From Octopus vulgaris (taxonomy: Eukaryota), in the NCBI GenBank assembly GCA_951406725.2, contig OX597817.1:44578001-44642000 (forward strand): a stretch of 64,000 nt of DNA. The letters are read 5' to 3'. Both the position numbers and the translations under genes were made by a program. The notes under the pieces were generated by a model, which made no database searches, was not told the origin of the DNA, and saw only the letters and a program-made list of their open reading frames with translations. Shown here piece after piece: positions 4,098 to 62,707 of this stretch (position 1 is the first letter of the stretch; the number at the start of each line of letters is the position of its first letter).

Positions 4098-4273
4098 ATA
4101 AATATTAGGGAATAAATCCAAATTTACAGGGAAAAAAATCAGATTTAGGATTAAATCCAATTTTATAGTAAAATATTATAAAATATTATTAGAGACAAAA
4201 CCACTATTTTGTAAAACAAACAAGGAAAGACTTAATCAATACATAAAATTTTAATAAATAGTCAAAAAAACCG

Positions 4274-4316
4274 CCACTACAATCGTTTCTTGTCTTGATC
4301 GACAATCTTCAGGTGG
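4274..4316 (-). ncRNA. Type-I hammerhead ribozyme, intact core (family H2)
   Basis: Minus strand CCAC-CTGAAGA-TTGTC-GATCAA-GACAA-GAAA-CGATTG-TA-GTGG: stem I CCAC/GTGG, 5-bp stem II, near-palindromic stem III ACGATTGT, GUA cleavage triplet; lies in an approximately 250-bp island between TA tracts. Confidence 0.8.
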
Positions 4317-4350
4317 ACTTCAATAAGTCAGTTTCAAATTATATATATAT

Positions 4351-4503
4351 ATATAAATATATGAAAGTATGGAGCTGAACGACGAATTAACAAAATTTCT
4401 TTATTTTCGACATATGTTTCGAAGGCTGCATATTCCTAATATGTCGAAAATAAAGGAACTTTGTTAATTCGTCGTTCAGCTCCATTCTTTCATATATTTA
4501 TAT
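4351..4503. repeat. Inverted partial pseudo-LTR (approximately 65-bp-arm hairpin) at the 5' end of the PLE
   Basis: Arms 4351-4415 and 4439-4503 are reverse complements; the left arm and loop hold the 3' half of the HHR found complete at 31161-31257. Confidence 0.85.
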
Positions 4504-4764
4504 TTTTAAAATAAACATTCAGTGGTGGTGCCCAGGATGGCCGCGGCCTTCGGGCTAAAATATTTTTAAGGATTAAAGGATTTATACAAATTTCCACACG
4601 AAAGCACGTAATCTATGCCCTAGGCACGTAACTTCAACCGTGTTTTTTCTGATGTGAATTTGCTACCCAGGTATCGAATTATCCTTAATAAGATAATTCA
4701 TTCAACTACTCAAATATTCATATACAGCCTCCTTGAGATCCTGCTACCTTAACCGATACCGCAA

Positions 4765-7403
4765 ATGGAGTTGTTCGAGATTAACGCATCCCTTAAGGAC
4801 ATACCAATACCACCAAAAGAAACCTTCCTTAAGGAAATTGTTAACGAAACAAATGCATTCATCAACCGAATTAGATGGCTCGCTTTCTTCCATGATAATG
4901 AGGACATAAAACAGAACGGTACCGAAACATCTTCCAAATATAAGATGTTATTCAAGTCGAGGGAAACCCCTCCACCTAATCCCAGACTGAAGAAATTTGA
5001 GGACGACCTATGGGACATTGTAAGGAGCATTAAATTCCGTAAATCGCCCCTTAGGAATAAACACCTTAGATACCTCAACAAAGTCACCAAAGATATAAAC
5101 AGTTTAGACGCTATCCTGGTACAATCAGATAAAACCAGGAACACTTATAAGCTAGCAAAAAACCAGTATTTAGAAATGCTCAAGAAAGAAATACAGAAGA
5201 ATTACAGAACAACAAATAAGAATACACCCAGACAAGCCAACTTGGAAATTAAGAAAATCATGGAAACTTATGGATTACAAATGAAAACACAACCGCTGAA
5301 CCCAAGACAACCAAGATTCATCGTCAAGGACCATAAACCAAACTTTCACACCAATCCAGCATTAAGGCTCATATGCCCCTCTAGTTCCGACATCGGTTCC
5401 ATTAGTAAGTACATTTTAGATAAATACATATCTAGATTAATCAATAAGTTAAAACTCAACATATGGTCTAACTCCACTCAAGTCGTAGAGTGGTTTTCTT
5501 CTATTTCTAATAAAAACAGCACAAAATTCATTCAATTCGATATTTCTAGTTTCTACCCTTCGATCAACCCTAGTGTACTCAATAAGGCCCTATGGCATGC
5601 ACATAATAAGGCAGGCCTCCCAAGGGAGGAAATTAATATAAGTTTAGCGGCTAGAAAATCCTTCATACAGTTCGATGATAAGTTATGGGTCCGTAAGGTT
5701 ACCCCCAACACGTTCGATGTGCCAATGGGAAGCTCAGACAACGCCCAGATAGCCGATTTGGTCGGAATCTATATTCTCTATGAATTAGCTGACCAATTCC
5801 CGGACATCTGCGGCGGTCTGTATCGAGACGATTGTCTATTTTACCTACAGAATGCTCCGAACAGTATGATACAGAAGACTAAAAACAGATTAGCTGGATT
5901 TGTTAGCAGAATGGGCATGAGCATAGTTTTCGACGACGAACTAACTAAAGCCAACTTCTTAGATGTTACCCTAAATCTGCATAACAATTCTTACTTCCCT
6001 TACCATAAGCCTTCTACTAACCTTAAATATGTCAGCAATTTCAGTAACCATGCAAAAACTATCACCGATAATTTAGTTAAAAATATATCCTTAAGACTAT
6101 CAAATTTATCTGCGAATGTCGACATTTTAAAACAAAAAGTGGAATTTTATAATGCCGCCTTGTCAAAAGCCGGTTATAGGGATAAGGTATCATATATCGA
6201 CCCGGCCCATTCTAAACTAATATTTGCTTCTCGGGATAAGAAAACTAATAACAATAGAAATAATGTAATTAAGGATTTCAGCTCTAGCAACGTCGACACT
6301 AATATAATTAACAAAAATAATTTACGGACCAGAGGAGGCAATCGAAAACCAACACCAATTCTACAACACAGAAATACTCCCTTTAATGTAAATGTTAACA
6401 CTCTGAGCCATTCTAAGTAAAAAAAAACTATATCTGGTTTGTATTTCCTTTCGGGAAACAAATCAGGTCTAACCTCCCTGTACAGTTCCGTGAAGCCGTA
6501 GCTAGGAACTTTCCCAGGAATTCTAGGTATTACTCTACTATCATTTCGCATAAGGTGAGGATTGCATTCTCCAACACTAGCAATCTATCGCAGATAATTG
6601 CCTCCCATAATAATAAGCTGCTAAATAAGGACTCATCACCCAGGAGTAGCGACACTGCCCTTACCAATTCCAACCTAACATACAATAATAATAATAATAG
6701 AAATAGTATTGATATTAGCAACATCCATAGCAGCATTGGCGTTAATAATAGTAATAATGATATTAACATTAGCCGGATTATTAACAGTGGTGGTGTTAGT
6801 GGTAATAGTAACAGCATTTCTAATAACAGTTGTATTATTGATGATAACAATCACAGCATTCCTATAGTCAGAGAAATTGCCGACGATATTACAATTAATA
6901 GTAATGATAATAAGATGAATAGTATCGTGGCCAATGCTAGCTACAATATTTACACCTATCATAACAATAAAAACTCTGTCTTAGTATCGGAAGTTAACCC
7001 CAACAGATTAAAGTTCTTATCCCAAAATTCCAAAATTAGAAACACCATTTACCAGTGCAAAATTTCTTCTGGAACCGATGTCTTCTACATTGGAGCAACT
7101 TCTTCTAAATTAGCTCAAAGGATCTCCAATCATTATTCAACTTTCTGAGATAAGAGAAAACAACACAGCACGGAACTAAGTAAATTAGTTTAGCGTCTGA
7201 AGGACAGCAATACAACTTTCAAGCTGGAATGGTCCATATTGTCGGTGTCCTTTCCGTTTGATAAGGGCAGAAAACTTTGTGGCATCTGTAATTCCGAACT
7301 TTTTCATATTTTGTTCGCCAAAGTCCCTTTAATAAATACAATCGTCGAGAGGTCCTACAGGTGCATGCATTGGCAAATACACACCTTTCACTCATATGAA
7401 TAA
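4765..7403 (+). pseudogene. PLE reverse transcriptase/GIY-YIG endonuclease ORF, disrupted
   Basis: 551-aa open RT frame 4765-6420; frameshift at about 6415-6427 (A-run); continues in the 6555..7148 frame; in-frame TGA at 7146-7148 and TAG at 7191-7193; reads through STELSKLV*RLK...WSIL...CGICNSELFHIL...RCMHWQIHTFHSYE* to TAA 7401-7403. Confidence 0.88.
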
Positions 7404-7834
7404 TGATTAATATAGATAACACCTTGAATTTTAATTAATATAACTTCTTTTTTTATATATGTCACCCCCATAGTCATAAAATTTTTTTTATACTTTCAAA
7501 GAACTACTACCCAATCCAGTGAGGTATGTGTTGACTTAGTCCCTCTACCTTGCCCTCCTCTTTCTCTCTCTATTTCCCTTTTTCTATAGTAAGCACAATC
7601 AAACACACAGACACAAATCTCTCACCTCACCACTGTCTGTTTTCTGACATCTACCCATCCACATACACAATCACGCACACACATACACACACACACATTA
7701 ATGCAGTTATATACAGTCACACACACAGGCACTCATTCACAAAAGAAATTAACAAAATCCACCATTCATATGACCTGCACCCTTTGACCTTCCTATTCTT
7801 ATGCCTCTCTCCTCCAACTTCGTTTGAACTCTTT

Positions 7835-8042
7835 TGTGTGTCTGTGTTTGACCCCCCAACATCACTTGACAACCGATTCTGGTGTGTTTACGTCCCCGTA
7901 ACTTAGCGATTCGGCAAAAGAGATCGATACAATAAGTACCAGGCTTACAAAGAATAAGTCCTGGGGTCGATTTGCTCGACTAAATGCGGTGCTCCAGCAT
8001 GGCCACAATCAAATGACTGAAGCAAGTAAAAGAGTAAAGAGT
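7835..8042 (+). mobile_element. SINE family C, 3' half
   Basis: CCCCAACATCACTTGACAACCG...CTCCAGCATGGCCACAATCAAATGACTGAAGCAAGTAAAAGAG matches the tail of the intact family C copies. Confidence 0.85.
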
Positions 8043-10732: not shown

Positions 10733-12361
10733 CAGTTGCGGCCAAAATGTTCAGAACGGCATTGTTTTCGTCAGAAAAGTAGATATAATTTTTTATCAAA
10801 GTTGTTTTATATTTTATAATTTTCACAGACAATAAATACAATATTGATTGTTATTGTCTGAGATTTTGGTGTAATTTTAGTGGATAATACAAAAGTGATG
10901 GATGATTTAGTGATTTACTGCAAGACTCATGGCGGCCAAACTGATCAGAACGGTTGAAAAAATAACAAAATAATCAAAAATGACAGAGAATACTGGAATT
11001 ATTTAATATTTAGTGTGAAGCCCTTTAGCTTCAATCACACTCTGACATCTTCGACTGCATGAGGAAATTAAATTTTCAATTTCTTGCTGGGTGATCTTAT
11101 TCCATTCTTCCTGAAGGGCATTCCATAATTGCTCAGTTGTTTTAGGATTTCTGGCTTTCGAACGTTCTCCTAGAATATTCCACACATTTTCAATAGGATT
11201 GAGATCTGGGCTTTGAGCTGGCCAATCCATAACAATAACCTTTTCAGCCTTGAGGAAGTTCATGGCCACCTTAGCCTTGTGACATGGGGCATTGTCCTGC
11301 ATGAATATGGGTGGTCGCTTAGTTGAATTTCTCAGCACAGGCAAGACATGATCTTTTACAAGTTGTTTATAAACTCCTGCATTTAACTTTCCATATAATC
11401 GCAGCAAAGGGCCCACACTATCTCCAGATATCATTCCCAAACCATGACACTTCCTTCACCGAATTTAACACTAGTCTTAAGGCATTTAGGCAACAATTTT
11501 TTCACCTACTTTTCTACGAACGTACCTTTTCCCATCTGCGCCAAATAACATAAACTTAGATTCATCACTGAAATGCACCGTTTGCCATTTTTCTTGAGAC
11601 CACAACACATGTTCGGTTGCAAAGGTAAGACGACACTTTTTATTCTTGGAGCTGATCAGTGGCTTCACTGCAGGTGCTCTTGCTTGTAGGTCGTGTTCAA
11701 CTAAACGACGAGACACAGTTTTTCGAGATAAAGTTTTCTTCAATATAATGCTAATTTTCCGAGAAACAGCAGCAGCAGTTTTAAATCTGTCCTTTTTAAC
11801 CAACTTTACTATAGCACGATCTTCTCTCTTGGTCGTGTTTCTTGGCCTACCTGTAGACTTTCTTGCTTCACACGAACCACAATCATCGTAGACCTTAAGA
11901 ATACCGTGTACAACACTTTTTGACTTGTTAACAATCTTTGCAATAGATCCAATACTTAAATTATCCTTCCTTCGAAGCTTAATAATCTGCTGACGAATTG
12001 GTAACGGAGTAAGTGGCATTATATTAACAAAGTACACTGTAAATATTCTTACTAATGTTTAGTAAACGAACCGTCACGTAAACAAATTCAAAACATTAGA
12101 GTTCGCCGGTTAAATATACTAAAACACGGAGTAAAAGCAACCGTTCTGATCATTTTGGCCGCCATGGAGTTTGCAGTAAATCCCTAAATCATCCATAACT
12201 TTTGTATTATCCTCTCAAATTACACCAAAATCTCAGGCAATAACATATCATATCGTATTCATTGTCTGTGAAAATTATAGAATATAAAACAAATTTGATA
12301 AAAAATTATATCTACTTTTCTGACGAAAACAATGCCGTTCTGAACATTTTGGCCGCAACTT
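10733..12361 (-). mobile_element. Tc1 (DD34E) DNA transposon with IR-DR long TIRs
   Basis: TA target dinucleotides at 10731-32 and 12362-63; TIRs about 224 bp (10733-10956 and 12138-12361) starting CAGTTGCGGCCAAAATGTTCAGAACGG, each with an inner direct repeat GCGGCCAAA(A/C)TGATCAGAACGG. Confidence 0.95.
11003..12019 (-). pseudogene. Tc1 transposase, single frameshift
   Basis: MPLTPL...GRPR...FSDESKF (11486..12037 frame) joins SVMVWGMIS...FMQDNAPCH-(34 aa)-SPDLNPIE...KGLHTKY (11003..11440 frame) across one frameshift at a T-run near 11496-11502. Confidence 0.92.
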
Positions 12362-13703: not shown

Positions 13704-14110
13704 TTAAGTAGCTTGCTTATCAACCACATGGTTCTAGGTTCAGCCCCACTGCGTGGCACTTTGGGCAAGTGTCTTTTACTATAGCCTGGGACAGACCAAA
13801 GCCTTGTGAGTGGATTTGGCTGACAGAAACTGAATGAATCCTGTCGTTTATGTTTATATGTATATATATATATATATATGTGCGTGCGTGTGTGTGTGTT
13901 TGTGTGTCTGTGTTTGCACCCCCAACATCACTTGACAACCGATGCTGGTGTGTTTACGTCCCCGTAACCTAGCAGTTCGGCAAAAGAGACCGATAGAATA
14001 AGTACTAGGCTTACAAAGAATAAGTCCTGGGGTTGATTTGCTCAACTAAAGGCGGTGCTCCAGCACGGCCGCAGTCAAATGACTGAAACAAGTAAAAGAA
14101 AGTAAAAGAG
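13704..14110 (+). mobile_element. SINE family C, near-complete copy with internal microsatellite
   Basis: tRNA-like head, TTGGGCAAGTGTCTT core, (TA)/(TG) insert, CCAGCACGGCCGCAGTCAAATGACTGAAACAAGTAAAAG tail. Confidence 0.88.
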
Positions 14111-18574: not shown

Positions 18575-19000
18575 GGTTTCAAATTTTGGCACATGGCCAG
18601 AAAATTCGGGTGAGAGGATAAGTCGATTACTTCGATAGCAGTCATCAACTGGTACTTATTTTATTGATCCCGAAAGGATGAAAGGCAAAGTCAACCAAGG
18701 TGGAATTTGAACTCACAACGTAAAAACGGAAGAAATACTGCAAATATTTTACCTGGTGTGTTATCGATTCTGCCAGCCCGGCGCCTTAGCGGTATTTCGT
18801 CTGCCGTTACGTTCTGAGTTCAAATTCCGCCGAGGTCGACTTTGCCTTTCATCCTTTCGGGGTCGATTAAATAAGTACCAGTTACGCTCTGGGGTCGATA
18901 TAATCGACTTAATCCGTTTGTCTGTCCTTGTTTGTCCTCTCTGTGTTTAGCCCCTTTTGGGTAGTAAAGAAATAGGTATTTCATCTGTCTTTACGTTCTA
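18575..19000. mobile_element. Two family B SINEs head-to-head (- at 18575-18785, + at 18778-19000)
   Basis: Both carry the (GC)CTTTCATCCTTTCGGG central motif in opposite orientations. Confidence 0.8.
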
Positions 19001-30105: not shown

Positions 30106-30751
30106 ACATGTAGAAAGAGAAGGTTTGTATGTACGTATTTCTGAAAGACGTATAGAATGAAAAGGAATGAAGAATAAAATTACACGTTGATTGCGTGTGA
30201 AATTGTGTGACAGACTGAGAGAAAGAGAAAGAGAGAGAGAAAGAGATGAAGAAGGAATATCAAGAAGAAAATAAAGTAGAAATATACGAGCCTACATTTC
30301 AATATGTGTATGTGTCTATATATTTATATATGTATACGTGTCTATACGTTTGTATGATTGTCAAAATAGCAGAATGTTTTTCTAACTCTTTTGTATGGGA
30401 CATGAGCCAAATTCTTCATGTTCTGAATAGCCGCATCAATGTTCCTAGACTATACCCACGTGCAGCTCATAGTAACCAATTTAGTGAGACATGGCACTCT
30501 AAAAAAGACAAAAAATATTAAAATAAATAAATAAATGAATATATAAATGAAGACAAAAGTGAAGAAACAATTTTGGCAACACAGACATCACGACTGGTCG
30601 GAAGCCGATACGTGCCGATGTTATTCAAATTATAGTCTGGCCTGGCACTCTTGTAATCACATATCATGGAGTTGTAACACTTACAGACACAAGTGAATTG
30701 GAAGGGACAAACACATAGAAATAGTCATCTACATCAACACATTCTACCTAC

Positions 30752-30792
<41 letters not shown>

Positions 30793-30843
30793 TATATATA
30801 TATATATATATATATATACATACATTTATACACACACTCACAT

Positions 30844-30887
<44 letters not shown>

Positions 30888-30901
30888 CATACATATACAC
30901 T

Positions 30902-30957
<56 letters not shown>

Positions 30958-30982
30958 ATATTTATGTATATATTTATGTATA

Positions 30983-31391
30983 TATTTGAGTAGTAGAATG
31001 AATTATCTTGTTATGGATAATTGGTTAACCGATACCTGGGTAGCAAATTCACATCAGAGAAGACACGTTTGAAGTTACGTGCTTTCGTGTGGAAATTTGT
31101 ATGTTTTTTTTTTTAATATAAATTTATGAAAGAATGGAGTTGAACGACGAATTAACAAAATTCCTTTATTTTCGACATGTTTCGAAGGCTGCATATTCCT
31201 AATTGCAAAGGAATAAGGTGTATATTATGCCGCTTTCTCATCAGGAAAAGCAAGGAACTTATGTCAACATCAAGATGCACAAAAAACCTTTAGATGACTG
31301 CTCACACGGAGCCCATAGCGATAATGAGTGTCTCTTTAAAAATTCCATTATCGCTATGGGCTCCGTGTGAGCAGTCATCTAAAAGTTTTTT
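30983..31391 (-). mobile_element. Solo pseudo-LTR of the Naiad-like PLE with 5' inversion
   Basis: Reverse complement matches 4439-4716 (ATACAAATTTCCACACGAAAGCACGTAAC...TGAATTTGCTACCCAGGTATCG...ACTACTCAAATA); ends in (TA)n; 46-bp-arm hairpin 31281-31326/31346-31391. Confidence 0.88.
31161..31257 (-). ncRNA. Type-I hammerhead ribozyme in the PLE pLTR, intact core, extended stem II
   Basis: Minus TTCCTTGCTTTTC-CTGATGA-GAAAGCGGCATA...TATTCCT-loop-AGGAATA-TGCAGCCTTC-GAAA-CATG-TC-GAAAATAAAGGAA; stem I of 5+6 bp with a 2x2 internal loop; palindromic stem III ACATGT; GUC triplet at 31174-31176. Confidence 0.88.
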
Positions 31392-44340: not shown

Positions 44341-44373
44341 TGTGTGAGTGTGTGTGTATGTGGGTGTGTATAA

Positions 44374-44584
44374 TGTGACCGCGTGTGTATCGTTGGCGAT
44401 TTTTTTCCCTCCGTCTTCCCTTCCTTGGATCTTTCCTTTTCCTATGTTCCTGACGAAGAGCTCCGCTCGAAACGTTAAATGCCTCTTCTTTCTTTCCTTT
44501 CCTGAGCGTCCAATAATTCTATACTTGTTTCACGTCCTCGCGTTGTTGTATTTTCTCTTTGTGTTTTCATGTTTGGATTAACTA
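44374..44584 (+). mobile_element. HHR-repeat family H1 copy; minimal type-I HHR at 44446-44480
   Basis: GTTC-CTGACGA-A-GAGC-TCC-GCTC-GAAA-CG-TT-AAAT: intact core, palindromic ACGT stem III, weak stem I; flanked by (TG)n and (TA)n/(CA)n. Confidence 0.75.
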
Positions 44585-44585
44585 A

Positions 44586-44708
<123 letters not shown>

Positions 44709-47662: not shown

Positions 47663-47715
47663 GAGCTTCCTGATGATTTCTTTTGAATGAAACAGTTCTA
47701 GTCCTGTAGAAGCTC
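47663..47715 (+). ncRNA. Type-I hammerhead ribozyme, intact core (family H8)
   Basis: GAGCTTC-CTGATGA-TTTCTTTTGAAT-GAAA-CAG-TTCTAGTC-CTG-TA-GAAGCTC: perfect 7-bp stem I, stem III ACAG/CTGT, GUA triplet; in an approximately 130-bp island between (TATG)/(TA) tracts. Confidence 0.88.
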
Positions 47716-47718
47716 CTT

Positions 47719-47764
<46 letters not shown>

Positions 47765-60043: not shown

Positions 60044-60769
60044 GGATCTTTTCCTTTTGTACGGCAGTTTTCAATGCAATTTCTAGTTAACTAAATACTT
60101 TTAAAGTTCGTGTACTGGTAGAACGTGTCAAAATAAAACATTTTTTTTCTCTTGGCTTTCTTAAGAAAATTGTAATTTGTAAGTTTAACGTAGTTTAATT
60201 TTTCAAATTTTTACCAATCCTATGCCCTCTATTGAGCTAAAATCATTTGCTGCGTCTAAAACTGAGGCAACATCCTGTCTCTGTTATGTTTACGTACGGA
60301 AAGCGTGAGTATAAAATTATAGAATTATTTTGTTTGTAAATTGTTTAAATTATTTTCCATTGCTTTCGTTTTAGCCTTTCGTTTTTTTTTCTTAAGCAAT
60401 GGAAAATAGTTTAAACAATACACGCGTATCTCAAAACAAAAACAAAACGAATAATTTTAGACACACGCGTAACAATTAAATTAATTTAGCAATTAAGAAA
60501 AAAAACGAAAGTCTAAATTTTAGGGTTAGGGTCAGTGACAGGATGTTGTCTCAGTTTTAGACGCAGCAAATGATTTTAGCTCAATAGAAGCCATTGATTG
60601 ATTAAAATTCGAAAAATTAAACTACGCTAAACTTACAAATTACAATTTTCTCTAGAAAGCCAAGAGAAAAAATGTTTTATTTTGACACATTCTACCAGTA
60701 TGCGAAGTTTAATAGTGTTTAGTTAGCTAGAAATTGTGTTGAAAACTGCTGTTCAAAAGGAAAAGATCC
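60044..60769. mobile_element. Non-autonomous long-TIR DNA transposon (MITE), Merlin- or MULE-like
   Basis: TIRs of about 235 bp (60044-60279 and 60537-60769) with GG...CC ends; 8-bp flanks TATCTGTA / CATCTGTA; no ORF. Confidence 0.88.
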
Positions 60770-62525: not shown

Positions 62526-62707
62526 ATATATAATTTTTAAAGCGGACAACAAATGTTAAGGCAAGGCAAACATCTCAAGTCGTATACAATATTATTATTG
62601 GAAATATTTTTTTCCAATAATAAAATTTTTTCCAATAATAATATTATATACGACTTGAGATGTTTGCCTTGCCTTAATGTCTGTTGTCCTCTTTAAAAAT
62701 TATATAT
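62526..62707. repeat. Hairpin with arms of about 80 bp
   Basis: AAGGCAAGGCAAACATCTCAAGTCGTATA vs TATACGACTTGAGATGTTTGCCTTGCCTT. Confidence 0.9.

Follow-up and report, generated by a model that had tools for sequence, protein, structure and literature searches.

Hammerhead cut positions and the 5' ends of Hydra-like Penelope retroelement copies in Octopus vulgaris

Whether cleavage by a hammerhead ribozyme (HHR) fixes the 5' ends of the copies that a Penelope retroelement (PLE) leaves in a genome is the question raised by a solo pLTR of Octopus vulgaris. The pLTR lies near 31 kb in a stretch of 64,000 nucleotides (contig OX597817.1, positions 44,578,001 to 44,642,000), here called the window. 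An earlier note on this DNA had linked it to a PLE near 4.4 kb, and had proposed that HHR cleavage defines the 5' end of the RNA that is reverse transcribed. Element positions are given relative to the predicted HHR cut, the first base after the cut being 0, and genome-wide searches refer to the 2.8-Gb genome containing the window.

The solo pLTR at 31 kb and the element to which it belongs

The following features were recognised near 31 kb.

30737..30984, no strand: (TA)n/(CA)n microsatellite target, adjoining the island at 30985
30985..31345, minus strand: sense arm of a solo pLTR of family 1, subfamily A, about -175 to +187, ending at 3' site 2 (TACTCA) in (TA)n
31100..31126, minus strand: 3' end site 1 (CTTTCAT, then a run rich in A and T), at which the family's inverted arms stop in (TA)n
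31161..31257, minus strand: type I hammerhead with stem I, CUGAUGA (31244-31238), a long stem II, GAAA (31183) and a short palindromic stem III (ACAUGU); predicted cut after 31174
31323..31327, minus strand: TCATT initiator-like motif, its A (31325) being family position -154, the mode of 5' ends
31346..31391, plus strand: inverted fold-back arm, element positions -155 to about -110

The description of this copy in the earlier note, as ending in (TA)n and carrying a 5' fold-back, was confirmed: the (TA)n is joined at 30985, and the fold-back comprises 46 bp of 98% identity (arms 31281-31326 and 31346-31391). Microhomology could extend the 5' end of the sense arm to 31351. The inverted arm begins at the C of the TCATT motif, where ends pile up across the family, and is atypical in that its end does not lie at site 1, as is also true of 7 of 69 partner arms in sample 1 (defined below). 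The stub lacks the TATAAA (-182) and TGACGTCA (-195) found upstream in long copies.

The HHR at 31 kb had been described as whole and intact. A type I HHR is indeed present on the minus strand, with the core CUGANGA, GAAA, UH and stems I-III of the definition, and its cleavage is predicted; loop III, however, has a 2-nt deletion that departs from the family standard, ACAUGU being 2 nt shorter than the family form. Loop III has the form GAAACATGTC in 4 of 168 arm matches and GAAACATATGTC in 142 of 168 (some loci overlap). A search for HHR cores found two real cores in the window, against none or one in each of 20 shuffled windows. When the window was scanned with Rfam, no hammerhead was matched at E<=1 and every hit was driven by microsatellites; on RNA folding of the 31-kb HHR the hammerhead was not the minimum-energy fold. 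Among 96 distinct copies of family 1 the core CUGAUGA is kept in 92 and stem I pairs 1-5 in 85-96. Stem changes are mostly absent or one-sided; in a subfamily, stem II has gained one pair and lost another. The palindromic form of stem III would suit cleavage as a dimer. One other locus (L190) seems to have lost its whole HHR by a deletion between direct ATAAAGGAATTT repeats that lie at -181 and +4.

The features of the ORF-bearing copy near 4.4 kb are as follows.

4351..4440, minus strand: inverted arm belonging to the 4.4-kb insertion; it covers -32 to +57, stops at site 1 and has only the 3' half of the HHR
4439..4716, plus strand: pLTR upstream of the ORF in this subfamily-B copy, running from -7/-5 to site 2 and interrupted by an insertion of 62 nt (4522-4583)
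4765..7403, plus strand: Hydra-like ORF with RT motifs (DKT, FDISSFY, YRDD), an Asn-rich linker and, at the C terminus, a GIY-YIG-type endonuclease with CxxC and CxH
7404..7833, plus strand: 3'UTR, interrupted by an unrelated repeat at 7833-8038

As the earlier note had stated, the reverse complement of 30982-31181 matches the sequence upstream of the RT gene (4438-4717), in three blocks of 89%, 100% and 87% identity that end 48 nt before the ATG at 4765; 31116-31203 also matches the inverted piece at 4351-4440 (93%). The link between the two loci is at the level of the family, not of parent and daughter, since they belong to different subfamilies (a 21-nt indel) and the 4.4-kb copy has the 62-nt insertion and no downstream (3') pLTR within the window. 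The interrupting repeat, where the downstream pLTR was lost, is a 205-nt SINE-like sequence with further copies at 13899, 27734 and 40499. Two frameshifts, near 6417 and near 7145, and a stop at 7191 disrupt the ORF in the window. That the pLTR belongs to this RT family, as had been supposed, was borne out at five other loci (L007, L023, L061, L063 and L086), where the endonuclease end is followed by the 3'UTR, the same HHR and the tail; L061 is a nearly full-length family-1 copy with one frameshift. The island at 31 kb is one of hundreds of short copies of a Hydra-like Penelope retroelement; it is 5'-truncated and dead, and by itself an ordinary relic of a known kind.

Family 1 was compared with a second family (family 2, described below), for which an intact element, L292, was found. 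RT motifs come first and endonuclease motifs last in the window copy, L061 and L292, and by motifs L061 and the intact L292 have a single ORF with RT followed by a C-terminal GIY-YIG domain without CCHH. In Pfam, no RT or GIY-YIG match was obtained for four proteins, and the Hydra-type domain call therefore rests on motifs. DKG is modified to DKT in both families (QSDKTRN), the motif at the N-terminal RWK position reads RIRWLA in family 1 and RIKWKA in family 2, CxxC and CxH surround a conserved E and N in both, and the RT3-RT4 spacing is, by eye, within 1 aa of that of Hydra-1_Obim. A CxCX5C linker is present in L292; none occurs in family 1 (window copy and L061), where the linker is Asn-rich and Cys-poor. 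The two proteins share 44% identity over 507 aa, and the units measure about 3.5 kb (family 1) and 6.0 kb (family 2). On these motifs family 1 is Hydra-like; the label goes no further because family 1 is without the CxCX5C linker and Hydra-1_Obim was compared by eye, not by an RT tree.

The account of the Hydra clade of EN+ PLEs in the available part of PMC8557442 (Craig et al., 2021) agrees in the order of RT and C-terminal GIY-YIG, in DKT, in the absence of CCHH, in CxxC and CxH, in a canonical HHR near the 3' end and in (TA)n targets, and the N-terminal and RT motifs found here follow, by eye, its text on Hydra-1_Obim. The present families are distinct from Hydra-1_Obim, with other HHRs, units of about 3.5 and 6.0 kb against <3 kb, Asn-rich linkers (CxCX5C being absent in family 1) and a tail of 70-140 nt against 30-40 bp; Hydra-1_Obim is listed in that part without pLTRs, which are abundant here. 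The same source gives Naiad elements pLTRs, inverted 5'-truncated partners, tails, (TA)n targets and a presence in cephalopods, all as here, but also an N-terminal endonuclease, CxC, DKA, an IFD and no canonical HHR, none of which fits. The earlier name "Naiad-like" was thus abandoned, a Naiad identity being ruled out by the C-terminal position of the GIY-YIG-type domain behind the RT, by DKT, by the lack of IFD-type RT3-RT4 spacing and by the canonical HHR.

Where family-1 copies end

Ends were recorded in two samples. Sample 1 consists of the first 100, in genome order, of 806 exact matches to the family-1 tail 28-mer, a selection blind to 5' structure. Sample 2 was drawn with the site-1 pattern (164 matches): 90 of the first 100 were used, after exclusion of 4 clustered matches and the last 6, and removal of 8 loci common with sample 1 left 82. 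The hotspot window (-172..-141) was picked in sample 1 after inspection of the data, whereas for sample 2 the cut and hotspot windows were fixed beforehand and identical to those of sample 1. Loci scoring highest in similarity searches are biased to full-length matches and were therefore kept out of the end statistics.

Copies have two fixed 3' ends in (TA)n, site 1 near +50 and site 2 near +190. In sample 1, 96 of 100 tails end at site 2, after the canonical HHR, and continue in TA-rich sequence. One locus, with a pair of tail arms, was set aside; 69 loci have a head-to-head partner, and 62 of these partners end some 140 nt earlier, at site 1. Sample 2 gave the converse arrangement: 60 of 82 loci have a partner, and 51 of the 60 end at site 2. 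None of the 100 tails of sample 1 runs into an ORF, and no duplicated 5' junction was found in that sample.

The suggestion that HHR cleavage sets the 5' end of the copies, which could account for at most a few percent of arms and is very improbable, drew on the sense pLTR near 4.4 kb, which was said to begin near the GUC cleavage site. It does begin within 5-7 nt of it, but upstream of the cut (4439-4441), and so keeps 5-7 nt that cleavage would remove, while its inverted partner keeps 32. This partner (4351-4440) had been taken for the rest of the ribozyme; an inverted fragment is there, but it holds the 3' half only, without the CUGAUGA core. The plot of breakpoints against the GUC site, proposed in the earlier note, gave no excess at the cut in either sample, where random breakpoints had been named as the outcome that would speak against the idea. 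Of the arms that reach +10, 8 of 119 in sample 1 end within 10 nt of the cut (9.9 expected) and 7 of 97 in sample 2 (11.8 expected); pooled, 15 of 216 stop there and 201 read through, a hazard of 0.0034 per nt against a background of 0.0045. At 0..+20 the family-1 excess amounts to 5.6 of 231 arms (P 0.16). The chance of any one arm stopping within 7 nt of the cut is about 6%. Ten ORF-linked 5' pLTRs of family 1 were found genome-wide, with ends at +169, +84, +48, -7, -14, -50, -282, -857 and -947 and one with almost no pLTR; five start further upstream and four downstream, which leaves the window copy as the only one with a start within 10 nt of the cut. As the main rule, the HHR cut does not set the 5' ends of family 1, or of family 2 (see below).

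The ends accumulate at another place. In the window -172..-141, 34 arms stop in sample 1 (5.3 expected, P 7e-17) and 27 in sample 2 (5.1 expected, P 1e-11). Of 102 arms that reach -141, 61 stop within -172..-141 and 22 at -156..-153, and the pooled hazard at -156..-149 is 0.056 per nt against 0.0045, about 12-fold higher. The mode is -154, the A of TCATT, 28 nt below TATAAA (-182). Both TATAAA at -182 and TGACGTCA at -195 occur in subfamilies A and B; we take TATAAA to be a TATA box, TCATT an initiator and TGACGTCA a CRE. The pile-up is seen in each of the three subfamilies, all of which include long copies. From these DNA ends, -154 is likely the transcription start. Subfamily C counts against this reading, in that a 13-nt spacer is missing and TATAAA lies only 12 nt above TCATT, yet ends still cluster in the same zone; so, for its own copy, does the 31-kb sense arm, which starts about 20 nt above -154.

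The base joined to the A at -154 points the same way as the mode. Of 30 loci inspected at -154, 29 are true ends, and among 37 exact matches genome-wide the non-genomic base before the A is G in 18, A in 11 and T in 8, whereas G occurs at 33 of 156 control ends (Fisher P 0.0015). An untemplated G has been read as a copied cap in L1 work, according to the available part of PMC9341517; against such a reading here, the partner arm could template the G in 7 of 15 inspected family-1 cases.

That the pile-up might mark a stall of the RT or a hot spot for microhomology, and not an RNA end, seems unlikely. Such a reading would be favoured by the AT-richness of the sequence immediately upstream, which resembles the target in this, and by a second cluster of 5' ends (-171..-165) within TTTAAAG; but the mode falls on one exact base, with an excess of G, and the matching pile-up of family 2 lies in a spliced first exon. 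RNA structure was rejected as the cause, since the pile-up region has no stronger local structure than the rest of the pLTR (40-nt windows of -6 kcal/mol against -7.7 and -9.2 elsewhere). An intron as the cause in family 1 was also rejected: the bases before -154 are not AG, and no shared upstream exon was seen.

A separate, apparent small cluster of 5' ends in family 1 (about 10 arms, -15..-11) lies at the start of an imperfect palindrome around stem III.

Spliced short copies in a second family

The earlier note had supposed that the other HHR islands are solo pLTRs of other PLE families. One such island, the only one traced to its end, was found to be so.

4098..4342, minus strand: solo pLTR of family 2, a spliced retrocopy in the (TA)n that ends the family-1 inverted arm; exon 1 ends at 4325, exon 2 starts at 4324
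Core CUGAAGA at 4312, minus strand: family-2 HHR in the window, predicted cut after 4278

Family 2 has the same two-site, head-to-head layout as family 1 and is young (99-100% identity, 434 exact tail matches genome-wide). Its intact parent, L292 (G000:C3:63974600-63984400, with L403), is a young Hydra-type element with an 838-aa ORF, a unit of 5996 bp and pLTRs that are 99.3% identical; a long inverted arm precedes it. L292 itself forms an arm of 1.4 units; its start lies 437 nt above the start site, and it retains both introns. The intron of the long copies measures 1816 nt (GTAAGT...TTTTAG) and ends 48 nt before the cut. L292 was the only copy of family 2 found with an ORF-linked pLTR (n=1), and none of 67 sampled family-2 tails runs into an ORF.

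In the short copies of family 2, that of the window included, a first exon of at most about 23 nt is joined directly to the acceptor. Typing covered 67 of the first 71 tail matches listed, the four left out being L292/L293 arms, all intron-bearing; long partner arms were also left out. The 67 tail-bearing arms comprise 23 spliced ones, 20 in which the intron is retained (16 called by rule, a further 4 by eye) and 24 whose end falls in exon 2. When partners are counted too, all of 39 spliced arms have 5-23 nt of exon 1 left (modes 16, 18 and 23); at least 256 spliced junctions against 73 unspliced donors were counted genome-wide. These retrocopies in DNA show the marks of a spliceosomal intron, namely GT-AG ends, exact removal and use of a second donor where the first is mutated: in the L268 subfamily the donor is mutated, and spliced copies use the next GT, 4 nt downstream. 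The evidence for splicing comes from family 2 only, and the family-1 leader shows no intron.

The base before the A at -23 of family 2, counted here from the donor, is G in 17 of 30 loci, 8 of which share one junction, or in 9 of 19 distinct junctions. Against a fixed start, three spliced copies extend 10-36 nt above the main one, and no TATA box was evident above the family-2 start. As to the cut, 65 of 72 family-2 arms pass it and 7 stop at +6..+10, which could be taken to favour cleavage as the source of ends; yet 0 of 106 arms end at -10..+5. Many end at +11..+34 and then almost none across the HHR body, and a minor pool of cleaved RNA, or a stall at the ribozyme, may exist in family 2.

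Contigs of four sequencing runs obtained with a family-1 query showed no starts or ends when set against the family-2 stub, and were kept out of the evidence. In one contig each of runs X5 and X12 (putative RNA) unrelated sequence is joined at the family-2 acceptor (window 4324), which could be splicing of a host exon or a DNA junction.

The short copies have also to be set against the possibility that they form a separate non-autonomous family or are remnants of full-length elements after deletion. They far outnumber ORF-bearing copies, which the sample-1 tails illustrate, and solo pLTRs are ascribed to recombination or deletion in the available part of PMC3846280. This origin is nonetheless improbable: the pile-up is found in subfamilies that all have long copies, sample 1 holds no duplicated junction, and deletion would not excise a GT-AG intron or track a donor mutation.

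Templates of short and long copies

Short copies, or stubs, probably arise when the RT primes at the two leader sites on capped RNA that the HHR has not cleaved, and runs off at its 5' end at -154. The enzyme would cut both strands of a (TA)n target and prime one cDNA from each site, and the two cDNAs would be joined by microhomology into head-to-head fold-backs. The pile-up would then be the start of the capped RNA, 154 nt upstream of the cut. On capped mRNA only the leader would be copied, because the priming sites sit in it, and the outcome would be dead solo pLTRs and fold-backs. For a copy to include the ORF, priming sites would have to lie downstream of it, and hence the template would be unspliced and longer than the unit, either a linear read-through RNA or a circle made by the HHR; long copies made from such a template would retain the intron and have, upstream, a pLTR whose length is random. 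The start of the 4.4-kb copy at -7 would be one such random end. That short copies of family 2 lack an intron which its long copies keep likely helps to explain intron retention in these elements. The HHR may still be of importance, but not by fixing the 5' end.

The step that supplies the long template could be taken by circles: cuts in two successive pLTRs and ligation would give a unit circle with an unspliced intron, and the RT would roll across the junction. This variant, which replaces only the long-template step of the reading preferred here, is possible rather than probable. Long arms are indeed longer than a unit, run past both the cut and the start site, and retain both introns; 0 of 3 ORF-linked family-1 arms reaching -140 stop at the start site; the core is conserved; the stem III palindrome fits dimeric cleavage; and circles were proposed for PLEs in PMC4209133, in its available part. 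Linear read-through RNA from tandem copies, however, predicts the same DNA products, the circle being known here by inference only, and in the available part of PMC11167929 HHR mutants still insert in vitro and no reads end at the cut. A fuller scheme, in which capped, spliced mRNA yields stubs and ribozyme-cut, re-ligated unit circles holding the intron yield productive copies, is put forward tentatively; if true, it would account in one scheme for the retained introns, the partial tandems, the solo pLTRs and what the hammerhead is for.

Priming from leader sites on uncleaved RNA has its closest counterpart in the green anole PAc Poseidon element (Frangieh et al., 2024; PMC11167929), for which the available text reports two internal RT start sites that define the tail, extension of both strands, AT-rich targets and insertion in vitro without need of HHR cleavage. 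In PAc the RT start sites lie inside the ORF, whereas here they precede the ATG; the study maps 3' starts in vitro, and the text available describes neither a pile-up of 5' ends at a start site, nor an added G, nor short copies that are spliced. Penelope of Drosophila virilis and Pen of Adineta vaga share, in the available parts of PMC2377424 and PMC3846280, a pLTR with promoter and start, a 5'UTR intron, partial tandems, inverted and solo pLTRs, TATA and Inr-like motifs and Asn-rich inserts. Those parts treat intron retention as general and unexplained, inversions as self-priming on antisense RNA and solo pLTRs as the result of deletion; here, by contrast, hundreds of stubs were copied from spliced sense RNA, and the intron is retained in long copies. 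Metazoan non-LTR retrozymes (available parts of PMC7229834 and bioRxiv 10.64898/2026.07.22.740005) are likewise short sequences with type I HHRs related to PLE pLTRs, but the present stubs are not tandem cut-to-cut monomers, their ends being the start site and the two priming sites.

Promoters in the pLTR and introns in the 5'UTR were already known, as were inverted partners, tails and solo pLTRs (PMC2377424, PMC3846280 and PMC8557442, in their available parts). No report of spliced solo pLTRs or start-site pile-ups was found in the literature searched, which covers the early PLE papers in part. The present results bear on two questions left open in the available part of PMC8557442, the role of the PLE hammerhead and the retention of introns after retrotransposition. 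In the genomic record the cut does not set 5' ends, spliced RNA appears to have been copied only into stubs, and long copies would derive from unspliced RNA longer than the unit. Exact coordinates for the start site, donor, acceptor and two priming sites, along with an intact young element, provide a basis for direct tests, and PLE start sites and introns may be read from DNA alone.

Further repeats were noted in the window. A transposase in two frames at 11003-12058 (minus strand), presumably Tc1/mariner-like from its motifs, has near-identical terminal stretches near 10774 and 12320. A fourth HHR-like island at 44370-44590 (plus strand) has CTGACGA and ends in (TA)n; its relatives, with CCGACGA, CCGATGA and TTGAAGA, occur at several other genomic loci and once more within the window. 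Further long fold-backs, at 18619-18911, 60044-60769 and 62526-62707, are possibly stubs of other PLE families. A third HHR family, at 47663-47725 (plus strand), has CTGATGA and a longer stem III and precedes (TA)n; in the flanks of six loci its copies are mostly head-to-head fold-backs whose arms begin just before stem I, upstream of the cut.
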